DNA of 30,632 nt from Gemmatimonadota bacterium (GTDB taxonomy: Bacteria; Gemmatimonadota; Gemmatimonadetes; Longimicrobiales; RSA9). A model generated the notes under the pieces. That model searched no databases, was not told the origin of the DNA, and worked only from the letters and a program-made list of their open reading frames with translations. The position numbers and the translations under genes are program-made. The DNA lies in NCBI GenBank assembly GCA_040905425.1, contig JBBDRO010000105.1, positions 1 to 30,632 on the forward strand, given 5' to 3'. Shown here one piece after another: positions 1 through 30,632 of the stretch (the first letter of the stretch is position 1; every line of letters starts with the position of its first letter).

Positions 1-377
<377 letters not shown>

Positions 378-416
378 GTCTTTCCTCGGTGGTGTATCAG
401 CGTTTGCGGTATCAGG

Positions 417-488
<72 letters not shown>

Positions 489-695
489 AGTATCAGGGGC
501 GCAGTGGCCCTGGGGCCCGCGCCGGGTGAGGCGGCAGACGGGGGAGCCACAAAGAACGCTCCCCCTCCCTGCGCTTCGCAGGTGGGGTATCAGCCCGCCT
601 CACCCTGTCCCGACTCGGTGGTATTCGCACGGCAGGCTGCCGTTTCATGCTCCCACCGGCCGCCGATCGCGCCACCCACAGCGATCGCTGGACAG
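489..695 (-). ncRNA. Putative structured leader RNA of the tRNA-Thr/tuf transcript
   Basis: Begins about 7 nt after a near-consensus -10. Perfect nested stems: 605-610/690-695, 664-670/681-687, 616-621/653-658, 629-634/638-643, 524-534/595-605, 540-547/558-565, 568-573/577-582. Confidence 0.5.
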
Positions 696-701
696 ACCTG
701 T

Positions 702-730
702 AGTATAGCCCGGCGTCCGAGGGGTGTCAA
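702..730 (-). promoter_or_regulatory. sigma70 promoter for the leader, tRNA-Thr(GGT) and tuf
   Basis: TTGACA-17 bp-TATACT on the minus strand (plus strand tgtcaa 725-730, agtata 702-707). Confidence 0.9.
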
Positions 731-774
731 CGGTGTGGGATGGCGGCCCCGCCGCGCATGGCATCCGCACGCGA

Positions 775-800
775 CCCGGCCGCCGGAATCGACGACCGGG
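775..800 (-). terminator. Hairpin downstream of tRNA-Gly (possible terminator or processing stem)
   Basis: CCCGGUCGUCG-AUUC-CGGCGGCCGGG is an 11-bp stem whose two G-U pairs work only on the minus strand. No U-tract follows. Confidence 0.4.
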
Positions 801-813
801 CCGGTGGGAAAAG

Positions 814-887
814 AGCGGGCGATGGGACTCGAACCCACGACCCTCAGCTTGGAAGGCTGATGCTCTAGCCAACTGAGCTACGCCCGC
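814..887 (-). tRNA. tRNA-Gly(TCC)
   Basis: GCGGGCGTAGCTCAGTTGGCTAGAGCATCAGCCTTCCAAGCTGAGGGTCGTGGGTTCGAGTCCCATCGCCCGCT, anticodon TCC. Confidence 0.97.
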
Positions 888-929
888 ACTCTGGAGGCAG
901 AAAGCTAACGGCGGCGGGCACTGCGTACA

Positions 930-1002
930 AGCTGACGGTCGGACTCGAACCGACGACCTGCCGCTTACAAGGCGGCTGCTCTACCAGCTGAGCTACGTCA
1001 GC
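930..1002 (-). tRNA. tRNA-Thr(TGT)
   Basis: GCTGACGTAGCTCAGCTGGTAGAGCAGCCGCCTTGTAAGCGGCAGGTCGTCGGTTCGAGTCCGACCGTCAGCT, anticodon TGT. Confidence 0.97.
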
Positions 1003-1038
1003 ACCCGGGAGATAAGAAAACCCCGCCGGCCCCGAGGG

Positions 1039-2520
1039 TCAACGGTTCGAAGCGACGTCGGCCGTGCCGCGTTCCCGGTGCCAGCGCACCCCCTGCAGCG
1101 TATCCTCCACCACCACGCCGCGCGCGCCGAGTTCGCTGCGAATGGCGTCGGCCGCGGCGAAGTCCCGGCGCGCCCGGGCGTCACGCCGCGCATCGAGGCG
1201 CTCCTCCACCCAGGCGGCGAACTCCTGGTCCACGCCCTCCTCCTCGGCACGGGCCAGGGCCACGATGCCGAGTACGTCATCCATGCTCGTCAGTGCGTCC
1301 AGGGCGGCACGGTGCTCCGCGGGCGGGACCTCGTCCGCCCGGTCCAGGGCGGCGTTGGCCTCGCGCACGAAGTCGAACAGCGCGCGCAGGGCCACCGGCG
1401 TGTTGAGGTCGTCGTCCAGGCCCCGCGCGAAGGTCTCCAGCGCCACCGCGGCCGCCGCGGCCAGGCCCACCTCCGCCGCCCCCTCGGCCACGGGCGCGGC
1501 TTCCAGCCGGCGGGAGAAGTCCAACAGGCGGCGCAGCGCTCCGCGCGCGTCCTCCAGCCCCGCGAAGGTGAAGTTCAGCTCGCTCCGGTAGTGCGCCATG
1601 AGCAGCAGGTAGCGGATGGCCGAGGGCGCGTGCCCCCGCGCGACCAGATCGGCGATGGTGAAGACGTTGCCCTTGGACTTGGACATCTTCTCGCCGTTGA
1701 CCTTGAGGTGCTTCACGTGCAGCCAGTAGCGCACGAACGGCTGCCCCGTGGCCGCTTCCGACTGGGCGATCTCGTCCTCATGGTGGGGAAAGATCAGGTC
1801 CTCCCCGCCCGTATGGATGTCCACCGTCTCACCCAGCTCGGCCATACTCATGGCGGAGCACTCGATGTGCCAGCCGGGGCGGCCCTCCCCCCAGGGCGTG
1901 GGCCAGGCGGCGCCCACCTCCCGGTCCGCGTCCCGCGCGGCCTTCCAGAGCGCGAAGTCCCGCGCGTCGGCCTTCTCGTACTCGTCGGCGTCGATGCCGC
2001 GCGCGCGGTCCGCCAGACCGGCGCCGGCGCGCGTCTGGCTCAGGTCCACGCGGGCCAGGCGCCCGTACGCGGGGAAGGAGGCGATGTCGAAGTAAACGGA
2101 CCCGTCGCGTTCATAGGCGTGGTCCTTCTCAATGAGCCGCTCCACGAGACCCACCATGGCGTCCATGTGCTCGGTGGCGCGGGGATAGACGTCCGCCGGG
2201 CGGACCCCCAGCGCGCGCAGGTCGGCAAAGAAGGCCTCCGTCTGGGGCGCGGTGACGGCGGTGATGTCCACCCCGCGCTGGCGCGCGCCGTCGATGATCT
2301 TGTCCTCCACGTCCGTCAGGTTCATGACAAAGCGGACCTCGTGCCCCTGCCACTCCAGATAGCGATGCAACAGGTCGTTGAACACGAACGTGCGGAAGTT
2401 GCCGATGTGGGGCGGCAGATAGACCGTGGGACCGCAGGCGTACACCCCCACGGGCCGGCCGGCCCGGGGCGTGAAAGCGCGCAGGGAGCGGGACAGCGTG
2501 TCGTGGAGCTTGAGGGCCAT
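1039..2520 (-). CDS. cysS: Cysteine--tRNA ligase
   Basis: YACGPTVY, HIGN (HIGH-like), GRPGWHIECSAM, DIHTGGEDLIFPHHEDE, KMSKSKGN, DDLNTP and a C-terminal ADAIRSEL anticodon-binding domain. Confidence 0.98.
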   Translation of the reverse strand: MALKLHDTLSRSLRAFTPRAGRPVGVYACGPTVYLPPHIGNFRTFVFNDLLHRYLEWQGHEVRFVMNLTDVEDKIIDGARQRGVDITAVTAPQTEAFFADLRALGVRPADVYPRATEHMDAMVGLVERLIEKDHAYERDGSVYFDIASFPAYGRLARVDLSQTRAGAGLADRARGIDADEYEKADARDFALWKAARDADREVGAAWPTPWGEGRPGWHIECSAMSMAELGETVDIHTGGEDLIFPHHEDEIAQSEAATGQPFVRYWLHVKHLKVNGEKMSKSKGNVFTIADLVARGHAPSAIRYLLLMAHYRSELNFTFAGLEDARGALRRLLDFSRRLEAAPVAEGAAEVGLAAAAAVALETFARGLDDDLNTPVALRALFDFVREANAALDRADEVPPAEHRAALDALTSMDDVLGIVALARAEEEGVDQEFAAWVEERLDARRDARARRDFAAADAIRSELGARGVVVEDTLQGVRWHRERGTADVASNR

Positions 2521-29372: not shown

Positions 29373-30632
29373 TCAGAAGGAGGCGCCGACCCGCACGTGG
29401 AAGACGGGCTCGCGGCCGGGACCGCGCAGGGGGAAGGCGGTACCGAAGCGCAGCCGCACCACTTGCCGGAAGCCCAGCGCGGCGTCCAGCACCAGCTCGC
29501 CGCCGGTGCTCACCAGGACGCCCGGCGGCCCGCACGTGACGGGCGCCGGCCGCGCAGGGCAGTCCGCACCGCCCGCGTCGGCGAACGCGGTGGCGGACAC
29601 CCGGTCCAGGAAGATCGGCAGCAGGCGCACGCCACGCCCCACCAGGGCGAGCGGGACGCGCAGCTCAGCGCTGGCGGTCCACGCCCGCGTGCCCGCCCGG
29701 TCCCCCTCCTCGAAGCCGCGCACCGGCAGCAGCAGCGAGGCCTCCTGTTCCAGGCCGCCCAGCGCCAGCCCCACCCCACCCGAGGCGCCGCCGATGCCGG
29801 TGGGGCGCGCCCCGCCACCCTGGCGCAGCAGCCCGCTCGCGCGCCCCGCCAGCACCGCGTCGGCGAACCCCACCCGCCCCAGCCCCACGTAGGCGGCGGC
29901 CGAGCCCAGCGCCTCCCGATAGCCGCCCTCGGCGTCCGGCTCCTCCTCCATGTCCCAGCGCTGGCGCAGCGCCGCGCCCACGCTCACGCCGTCCTGCCGG
30001 CTGATGCCCAGCGCGTGCACCTGGTAGTCGGCATAGCCGGCGCGCAGCACGGCCCCCAGCAGCCGGTCATCCGGGTTGCGCAGTCGATGCTCCCCCGCCG
30101 CCTCCATGACCCGGTGGCGACGCACCAGCTCGGGCCCGGCCGAGACGGTGAGCGAGCGGCGCCAGCGCTGCCACGGGACGGCCGCCAGCAGCGCCAGGCG
30201 GTCCTCCCGCGAGAGGACGTCGCGCTCGGAGCCGTCGGGCAGCACCGCGCGGCCGATCCAGTCCCATTCGCGCTCCGCTCTGAGCGTGAGTACCGGGCGA
30301 CCGAGCCCGGCCCACTCCCACGCGGCCAGCCCCTGCCACAGACCATCGGCCGGGTTGACGGCGGCCCACGCCTGCCACCGGTGCCGCCCCACCAGGTCCG
30401 CGCCGGCGCTGGCCATGCCCAGGAAGGTGCCGGCGCGGCCGCCGTCCAGGATCACCGGGGACCAGAAGGCGGCGCGTGCGTGGCGCAGCGCACGGTAGGG
30501 CCGCGCCGGACCGGCCAGCGTGTCCACCGCCTGCGGGTCCGTAGGAACGGCGCTCGCGCCGGGGCTCGTCGCGGTCCCGGTCCCGGTCGCGGTCCCGGTC
30601 GCGGTCCCGGTCGCGGTCCCGGTCGCTCCGGG
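29373..30632 (-). CDS. Omp85/BamA-TamA-like outer-membrane beta-barrel protein, C-terminal part (5' end outside the window)
   Basis: Frame is open to the window edge. Amphipathic beta strands, PVRGF motif, ASAELRVPL, FADAGG, C-terminal Phe (VGASF). Confidence 0.8.
   Translation of the reverse strand, partial: PGATGTATGTATGTATGTGTATSPGASAVPTDPQAVDTLAGPARPYRALRHARAAFWSPVILDGGRAGTFLGMASAGADLVGRHRWQAWAAVNPADGLWQGLAAWEWAGLGRPVLTLRAEREWDWIGRAVLPDGSERDVLSREDRLALLAAVPWQRWRRSLTVSAGPELVRRHRVMEAAGEHRLRNPDDRLLGAVLRAGYADYQVHALGISRQDGVSVGAALRQRWDMEEEPDAEGGYREALGSAAAYVGLGRVGFADAVLAGRASGLLRQGGGARPTGIGGASGGVGLALGGLEQEASLLLPVRGFEEGDRAGTRAWTASAELRVPLALVGRGVRLLPIFLDRVSATAFADAGGADCPARPAPVTCGPPGVLVSTGGELVLDAALGFRQVVRLRFGTAFPLRGPGREPVFHVRVGASF
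30570..30626 (-). repeat. 12-bp tandem repeat (GCGACCGGGACC)n encoding an Ala-Thr-Gly-Thr linker
   Basis: Plus strand ggtcccggtcgc about 4.5 times with one 6-bp slip. In frame it reads PGATGTATGTATGTATGTGTATSP. Confidence 0.9.

Follow-up and report, generated by a model that had tools for sequence, protein, structure and literature searches.

A leader RNA with an L1-operator-like hairpin upstream of tuf and the rplK-rplA cluster in Gemmatimonadota

Feedback by ribosomal protein L1 (uL1) is among the most widespread of the ribosomal-protein controls. The L1 proteins of Thermus and Escherichia coli are known to cross-bind. Other ribosomal proteins act on transcription attenuators (L4 on the S10 leader of E. 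coli; L10(L12)4 and L20 on leaders of Bacillus subtilis): the protein recognizes a 5' leader remote from its own cistron and governs the whole operon through RNA structure. For L1, the sites presented in the sources used here lie directly before rplK or rplA and act on translation (PMC3616713, PMC10931766). In the present study, we analyzed a leader RNA between two tRNA genes upstream of tuf in a metagenome-assembled Gemmatimonadota genome labelled Longimicrobiales. The analyzed stretch (30,632 nt, from the start of contig JBBDRO010000105.1 to position 30,632) is referred to as the window; the leader, the tRNA genes, and tuf are all on its minus strand. The leader contains a hairpin that resembles the L1 operator, and we consider it probable that this is an L1-responsive operator, about 2.5-3 kb upstream of rplKA, which L1 would bind and regulate.

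The gene order at the locus is close to that of the thrU-tyrU-glyT-thrT-tufB operon of E. coli: tRNA-Thr(UGU), tRNA-Gly(UCC), tRNA-Thr(GGU), and tuf lie on one strand, and secE-nusG-rplKAJL follow. E. coli has 6 nt between glyT and thrT and carries tyrU between thrU and glyT, whereas the tRNA cluster here (813-1002) has no tRNA-Tyr, and the equivalent spacer from tRNA-Gly(TCC) to tRNA-Thr(GGT) is 324 nt long, with its own promoter and a structured leader. A preliminary description of the window proposed for this spacer an undescribed RNA of about 205 nt that has two tandem three-way junctions and a boxA-like loop and controls EF-Tu expression.

Fit of the central hairpin to the L1 consensus

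In the alignment of L1 sites by Fu et al. (2013; PMC3616713, file L1RNA.sto), the consensus is GUGGGAGggu..gaccCG.U.UA..aACCA.C and the structure line is <<<<--<<<..>>>-.-.--..-->>>.>; that is, an outer stem GUGG/CCAC is followed by a GA bulge, an inner stem closed by a G-C pair, and a 3' loop G-N-N-(N)-A. The leader contains GUGG-GA-GCA...UGC-G(N3-5)A-CCAC, which fits this consensus and has the same layout as the E. coli rplK leader. The irregular hairpin with its outer GUGG/CCAC, 5' GA bulge, G-C-closed inner stem, and 3' loop is thus alike in the leader and in the L11-operon L1 autoregulatory RNA, as the latter is presented in PMC3616713 and PMC10931766. Both RNAs mimic the L1 stalk of 23S rRNA, and in both systems the L1 gene is downstream in the same cluster. 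They differ in location, as the site here begins a leader of 260-370 nt that precedes tuf (in the window, a tRNA gene) or rpmG. In addition, the apical hairpin here is invariant, and the site is joined to a complementary block, also invariant, and to another domain. The details of L1 recognition used for this comparison come from these two papers and PMC2175363.

The outer helix GUGG/CCAC is present and invariant in 35 distinct sequences, and it is extended by four covarying pairs (22 cells), a level of covariation reached by none of 500 shuffles. At the GA bulge, which in L1 sites is a potential G-A pair with an unpaired A, and at the inner stem, G-A-G-C at 652-649 is invariant and can form GCA/UGC with 629-627. 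The asymmetric 3' loop, for which the consensus is G.U.UA..aA, is GAAUA in the window and GUUUA, GUUGA, GACGAA, GAUUUA, or AUUGA in relatives. Overall, the invariant bases of the motif are those of the L1 consensus (about 14 positions). In the relative G014, both strands of the 23S L1 stalk are matched by the flanks GGUGGGAGC and AAUACCACC; leader positions 41-49 and 73-81 correspond to 23S positions 2213-2221 and 2263-2271. The stalk (helices 76-78) has GGUGGGAGC in its 5' strand and (A)AUACCACC in its 3' strand in common with the leader, but it carries between them an H77/H78 insert of 42 nt with a different sequence.

A search of Rfam 15 gave no family for the leader at the gathering score and, over 380-1100, nothing credible at E<=10, in agreement with the preliminary description, which had recognized no Rfam family. 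As a control, Rfam was run on the E. coli rplK leader, which holds the classic L1 operator, and on the rplJ leader, and yielded no leader hit there; thus its silence is uninformative for L1 operators. The element can no longer be called undescribed, as its core hairpin fits a published L1-binding operator consensus. A tRNA-like, T-box, or riboswitch identity of the core was rejected, as neither ARAGORN nor Rfam gave a hit.

Occurrence in related genomes and operon context

When the whole tRNA-spacer region was compared with 40 relatives by BLAST, only the tRNA genes were found; the spacer had to be used alone to detect a core of about 70 nt, which is present in a dozen genomes of the same family in GTDB. 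A covariance model, R1, built from the leader motifs alone (80-nt core), matched 16 of 73 family genomes and 9 of 37 genera (14 of 71 genomes when the unpublished G016 and G076 are set aside), with a single match per genome except for two in G062. In 150 other genomes across the phylum R1 found no match; this sample contained few close relatives and was searched with strict filters, so it does not prove that the motif is missing there. In 185,579 species genomes, an exact pattern matched at 69 places. From the flanking sequence, 15 of these were judged to be the motif (11 repeat family loci and four are new), all from Gemmatimonadota, in records titled Longimicrobiales, Gemmatimonadales, or Gemmatimonadaceae; the 54 others, one of them labelled Gemmatimonas, are chance matches. 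The same kind of scan gave at least 120 matches in metagenomes; among the matches listed, 20 have the ACCAC strand behind the core and represent the motif (ten before tuf, nine before rpmG, and one cut). The layout conserved in the 17 loci examined is the start, a variable hairpin, the core GGUGGGAGCA..CGGCAGCCUGCCGUGCG..ACCACC, and then GGCGGGCUGA; conservation in relatives extends to the promoter, to GUCUGUCC at the 5' end, and to the central hairpin. The promoter-driven structured leader before tRNA-Thr(GGT)-tuf was thus borne out as an evolutionarily conserved element (BLAST and R1), with its core kept and its outer stem covarying. As a separate observation, one of the two motif copies in the G062 bin (G062:C189) runs into short tandem repeats instead of tuf, and several intergenic spacers of the family are made of the short tandem words CCAGAAAC, GCUGACGGCAUACG, UAGGACUAAGGACU, and GAGAGUGUGAGAGUUU (G062:C189 and the nusG-rplK spacers of G022, G052, G072, and G228).

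In the family, leaders with the motif before tuf were found at 12 loci in addition to the window; in those twelve the distance from the start to the tuf ATG is 257-368 nt, with no tRNA gene in between. Motif-bearing leaders that could be traced to a start codon run straight into tuf or rpmG in 14 of 15 cases, and only that of the window holds a tRNA gene. The L1-like site is 320 nt before the tuf ATG in the window and 193-371 nt before the start of tuf or rpmG elsewhere; it is not directly before rplK or rplA. In G228 and G229, two other Gemmatimonadota metagenome-assembled genomes (MAGs) that came from the pattern scan and lie outside the family, the promoter and the core motif are behind tuf, before rpmG-secE-nusG; therefore the downstream genes that all arrangements share are rpmG-secE-nusG-rplK-rplA. 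The proposed control of EF-Tu expression is, for the same reason, too narrow.

The order tuf-rpmG-secE-nusG-rplK-rplA-rplJ-rplL was confirmed by Pfam in G014 and found by tblastn in further family loci and in G228/G229, and G014 and G009 encode rplA downstream of the leader, in the same orientation and within a compact cluster. In the genome of the window (G000), the cluster is on contig C13 (1-2917), with gaps of 21 nt (rpmG-secE), 1 nt (secE-nusG), and 5 nt (nusG-rplK), and both rplK/rplA and rplA/rplJ abut (0 and 0 nt). As the nusG-rplK gap is so short and rplK and rplA abut, this genome has no room for the usual L1 site before rplK. The leader contig (C105, starting inside tuf) and the cluster contig (C13, starting 52 nt before rpmG) are split at tuf, and only synteny links them. 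In every relative, two copies of tuf lie about 16.5 kb from each other, a repeat that breaks assemblies. By synteny, the leader would head a tufB-type operon consisting of promoter, leader, tRNA-Thr(GGT), tuf, rpmG, secE, nusG, rplK, rplA, rplJ, and rplL.

The distribution of canonical sites at rplK was examined in the 39 family genomes from which the rplK region was recovered, nine with the leader motif (seven without G016 and G076) and 30 without a leader match. The nusG-rplK spacers of the nine (4-121 nt) contain GGGAG in no case. Among the 30, 11 carry a canonical GUGGGAGC..GCG(N2)ACCAC site just upstream of rplK, nine of which were found by a strict pattern and two by eye; in a further three the site looks degenerate. 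The tuf leaders of G047 and G071 are assembled in full and do not contain the module, and both genomes have a canonical rplK site. R1, which was built without such sites, places weak matches (E 0.036-2.2) on the rplK site in all nine canonical loci searched. In part of the family at least, the same recognition element appears to sit either at the usual rplK place or at the head of the operon.

The canonical rplK sites of the sister genera (G047 locus L171; G004, G017, G019, G024, G048, G070-G073, and G087) have GCUCCC in the apical loop. This sequence is complementary to two copies of GGGAGC, one within the site and one at the Shine-Dalgarno sequence of rplK about 40 nt downstream, an arrangement that suggests a switch or pseudoknot built in for repression of translation.

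Could the leader sense something other than L1, such as EF-Tu, NusG, L11, L10/L12, L33, or a small molecule, and resemble an L1 operator by coincidence? The apical CGGCAGCCUGCCG and the block GGCGGGCUGA are invariant though a plain L1 site needs neither, a second domain follows the core, and leaders without the L1 module in the same family imply that the leader has other roles. Moreover, rplA and rplJ abut, so that an L10 leader is likewise absent from its usual place. These points have to be set against the coincidence of the invariant bases with the L1 consensus, the canonical rplK sites that replace the module in sister genera, the lack of any Rfam riboswitch or leader family at E<=10, and the lack of a consistent rRNA match in any part of the second domain; we therefore consider a non-L1 sensor rather unlikely. 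Independently of this question, C13 leaves no space ahead of rplJ for an L10(L12)n leader of the usual kind, and the second domain could be a candidate site for another operon protein.

Fold, possible switch, and promoter of the leader

The minimum free energy (MFE) folds of 700-489 and of 697-489 contain every helix named in the preliminary description (Table 1). The folding energy, -118.5 kcal/mol, beats that of 200 dinucleotide shuffles (-101.2 +/- 5.3 kcal/mol; z -3.27; one shuffle was equally good). Both three-way junctions are present in this fold, but the first is specific to the window: the sequence and length of the 5' hairpin P1 are not conserved, and in relatives the 5' end GUCCCGG pairs locally in a hairpin GUCCCGG...CCGGGAC. 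The CUGUCC/GGACAG closing stem, the sequences of the second-junction hairpins, and the boxA-like loop are not conserved in relatives either.

As for the closing helix of the second junction, the distal complement of the 11-bp stem beats shuffles in the window, with z -2.5 and a fraction of 0.015 of the 200 shuffles equally good. For this distal helix, z averages -0.77 across 32 distinct leaders and is below -1.64 in 10 of them; it is convincing in the window and a few relatives and missing in several rpmG-type leaders. RNAalifold, applied to a MAFFT alignment of the second domain from 14 leaders (a poor alignment), gave four pairs with zero compensatory changes. We do not claim this stem as a conserved feature of the class, a status that these results support weakly. 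Comparison of the second domain with rRNA gave just 7-10-nt matches (E>=1) and no consistent site.

A DNA contig from a soil metagenome (run X2), about 94% identical over window positions 454-831, spans the entire leader, so a close relative that shares both the leader and the order of the tRNA genes is present in a second study. Within 489-697 it has nine substitutions, seven at unpaired positions and two that preserve pairs.

These data bear on the idea that the spacer is simply GC-rich, folds well from composition, and functions as a promoter only. Shuffled sequences already fold to about -101 kcal/mol, and in many leaders the distal helix does not exceed chance. We nevertheless give this idea hardly any credence, in view of the z of the fold, the covarying helices, the substitutions in the near relative, which either fall in loops or keep pairs, and the 80-nt core kept across 9 of 37 genera and in other lineages.

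An rRNA-type boxA/Nus antitermination leader, which would shield the long untranslated leader and the operon from Rho, was suggested by the loop GUUCUUUGUG at 557-548 and its resemblance to boxA. A long untranslated leader before a highly expressed operon would suit such a role. The sequence GUUCUUUG occurs only in the loop of the window and is absent from the leaders of relatives, two of the loop bases differ in the X2 contig, and the stem that carries the loop also varies in sequence between relatives. The resemblance is a chance match, boxA was rejected as a conserved element, and an antitermination leader of this type is very improbable.

Since tRNA-Thr(GGT) follows the leader, RNase P cutting of this tRNA would free the leader as a separate RNA of about 207 nt in this genome. 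Such an RNA might persist and act in trans as a small RNA, for example as a decoy that buffers free L1, and its high predicted stability and its L1-site mimic would be in keeping with this. The 14 motif-bearing leaders that run into tuf or rpmG without a tRNA are ordinary 5' untranslated regions; R1 finds one copy per genome, and the RNA runs found show no accumulation. A free-standing RNA is unlikely on these grounds. The placement of tRNA-Thr(GGT) itself varies in the family: it is inside a promoter-driven leader in G000, G047, G063, and G071, the last three of which are without the L1 module, and the leaders of the other motif-bearing genomes do not contain it.

The apical hairpin and the block GGCGGGCUGA (segment C) are both invariant. 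Segment C complements segment B (CAGCCUGCC, 638-630), which is part of the apical hairpin; CAGCCUGCC can pair with the invariant GGCGGGCUG 40-50 nt downstream, and the B:C pairing holds in 97.9% of cells. The B:C pair 37-92 is A-U in 24 sequences and U-A in five, and the same five break the hairpin's own closing pair 37-41. A second B:C pair changes from U.G (33 sequences) to U-A (two, one of which is the unpublished G016). The apical hairpin CGGCA-GCC-UGCCG is present in all sequences, including the CGGC strand that the scan pattern left free, whereas the apical part of the L1 sites aligned from other bacteria varies freely (PMC3616713). Because both use the strand CAGCCUGCC, the apical hairpin and the B:C helix are mutually exclusive. 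When the alternative fold was forced, its cost was 0.5-5.6 kcal/mol in 10 of the 15 leaders folded. The block GGCGGGCUG can also pair with the C-rich distal strand to form the 11-bp stem of the second junction. The B:C complementarity, with one compensatory change, suggests a switch.

Table 1. Features of the locus, in window coordinates
Feature	Position	Strand	Basis
Putative L1 operator mimic: outer stem CCGGUGG/CCACCGG, 5' bulge GA, inner stem GCA/UGC, 3' loop GAAUA, apical ACGGCA-GCC-UGCCGU (643-629)	611-662	minus	L1 consensus fit
Central hairpin, CGGUGG/CCACCG with inner ACGGCA/UGCCGU	662-611	minus	MFE fold
Invariant block GGCGGGCUGA (segment C)	590-599	minus	alignments
Stem CUGUCC/GGACAG	694-690 with 610-606	minus	MFE fold
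Variable 5' hairpin P1, CGAUCGC/GCGAUCG	664-687	minus	MFE folds; alignment
Second domain, 11-bp closing stem GGGUGAGGCGG/CCGCCUCACCC	605-595 with 534-524	minus	MFE fold
Second-domain hairpin CCUGCG/CGCAGG	582-568	minus	MFE fold
Second-domain hairpin GGGGGAGC/GCUCCCCC, loop GUUCUUUGUG (boxA look-alike)	565-540, loop 557-548	minus	MFE fold
Leader 3' hairpin GGCGCGGGCC..GGCC..GCGCC, no U tract behind	498-523	minus	MFE fold
Predicted transcript 5' end GUCUGUCC	690-697	minus	kept across family alignments
Sigma-70-type promoter: TTGACA 730-725, 17-nt spacer, TATACT 707-702	702-730	minus	11/12 consensus matches
tuf (EF-Tu) 5' part, ATG 377-375, truncated by contig start	1-377	minus	92-97% identity to tuf copies of five relatives
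tRNA-Thr(GGT), between leader and tuf	488-415	minus	tRNA prediction, Rfam
tRNA-Gly(TCC)	887-813	minus	tRNA prediction
tRNA-Thr(TGT)	1002-930	minus	tRNA prediction
cysS 3' end, then terminator-like hairpin	1037-1021 (hairpin)	minus	scan of window 1-1400

The TTGACA-17-TATACT promoter of the preliminary description is present, and no other site in window 1-1400 resembles a promoter; the mean over 50 shuffles was 0.1 sites. In 17 of 17 loci examined, a TTGAC-17-TAnnnT box lies at a constant distance from a GTCTG start or a start similar to GUCUGUCC, and family leaders without the L1 module begin with the same 5' end as GUCUGUCC. In the genome of the window, the promoters of groES-groEL (G000:C33:24040-24110) and rpsL-rpsG (G000:C60:2203-2270) likewise consist of TTGAC-17-TAnnnT followed after 5-6 nt by (A/G)TCTGT. 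As the same promoter-plus-start pattern precedes these genes, the conserved GUCUGU start is probably a feature of promoter and start site in the strong promoters of this organism, not of RNA structure. The rpsL-rpsG site has a leader of about 227 nt, and the groES-groEL promoter region contains an inverted repeat TTAGCACTC-N9-GAGTGCTA, which we take to be the CIRCE/HrcA operator.

No intrinsic terminator (GC-rich hairpin plus U tract) was seen in the leader (489-697), and the scan of window 1-1400 gave only that of cysS. Just upstream of the tuf Shine-Dalgarno sequence, ACACCACCGAGG (384-395, minus strand) is a near copy of AUACCACCGAG (622-612), which forms the 3' strand of the stem in the L1-like site. 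Related elements of the type (A)CACCACC..GAGG are found before the tuf start in family members both with and without the L1 module.

Possible mechanism and meaning

Several observations weigh against an L1 operator in the leader, or against its use as a switch. The rRNA matches of 8-10 nt are individually insignificant, GGUGGGAG also occurs at two further 23S positions and once in 5S rRNA, and R1 does not recover the 23S L1 stalk at E<=10. Part of the invariance of the motif is by construction, because the scan pattern fixes 19 bases, including GTGGGAGCA and CCTGCCGTGC, at which the 15 species-genome and 20 metagenome instances cannot vary; for these columns, invariance rests just on the family set found by BLAST and the model. 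At rplK the complementary pattern is partial, as 19 of the 30 motif-less genomes have no clear L1 site there either; related genomes are not independent, and a missing leader match in a fragmented MAG may mean missing assembly. The site is far from every start codon, with a tRNA between it and tuf in this genome, and in the window the alternative fold costs 16 kcal/mol. Six RNA runs contain <=0.05 of the sampled words, and the three that were compared cover just the tRNA genes and are contigs, which reveal neither transcript ends nor expression. Finally, a simple relay, in which L1 locks the hairpin, segment C pairs with the C-rich distal strand, and the Shine-Dalgarno sequence is freed, would give positive, not negative, feedback.

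If the leader is an L1 operator, L1 that is made faster than 23S rRNA absorbs it would bind, as free protein, to the central hairpin (662-611) and alter the expression of its own operon; the hairpin would mimic the L1-stalk site of 23S rRNA, with the architecture and key bases of the L11-operon L1 operators. Classic blocking of a ribosome-binding site cannot apply, because the site is about 110 nt before the excised tRNA, 320 nt before the tuf ATG, and kilobases before rplK-rplA. The most likely route would be a structural switch during transcription or early processing. The apical hairpin (CGGCA/UGCCG) and GGCGGGCUG would compete for CAGCCUGCC, and L1 binding would tip the competition, presumably by locking the apical hairpin and freeing GGCGGGCUG. 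The step affected may be termination, processing, stability, or translation. Compared with ribosomal-protein attenuators, the leader has no visible intrinsic terminator in 489-697; attenuation would be a hypothetical output. Binding by L1, the direction of its effect, and the kind of output are inferred.

A fuller model, which we put forward tentatively, is that the leader may be a riboswitch-like, L1-responsive device in which the apical strand of the aptamer is shared with the competing helix CAGCCUGCC : GGCGGGCUG. Such a device might set read-through or processing of a super-operon (EF-Tu, tRNA, L33, SecE, NusG, L11, L1, L10, L7/L12, and perhaps rpoBC) according to the balance between L1 and new 23S rRNA, and the module may have moved between sites before rplK, rpmG, and tuf within one phylum.

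The recognition element itself is known; what is new here is the location of the putative L1 operator at the head of a tuf or rpmG leader and its wiring to a competing helix. A literature search at the level of titles and abstracts found no description of an L1 site in a tuf or rpmG leader. For annotators, the study provides a motif that Rfam does not contain. If L1 binds, EF-Tu, NusG, and SecE would share a ribosome-assembly signal with L11 and L1, and the leader would be an L1 operator that acts at a distance, probably during transcription. The natural relocation of the operator inside one family would then offer a clean system for studying how ribosomal-protein operators move.

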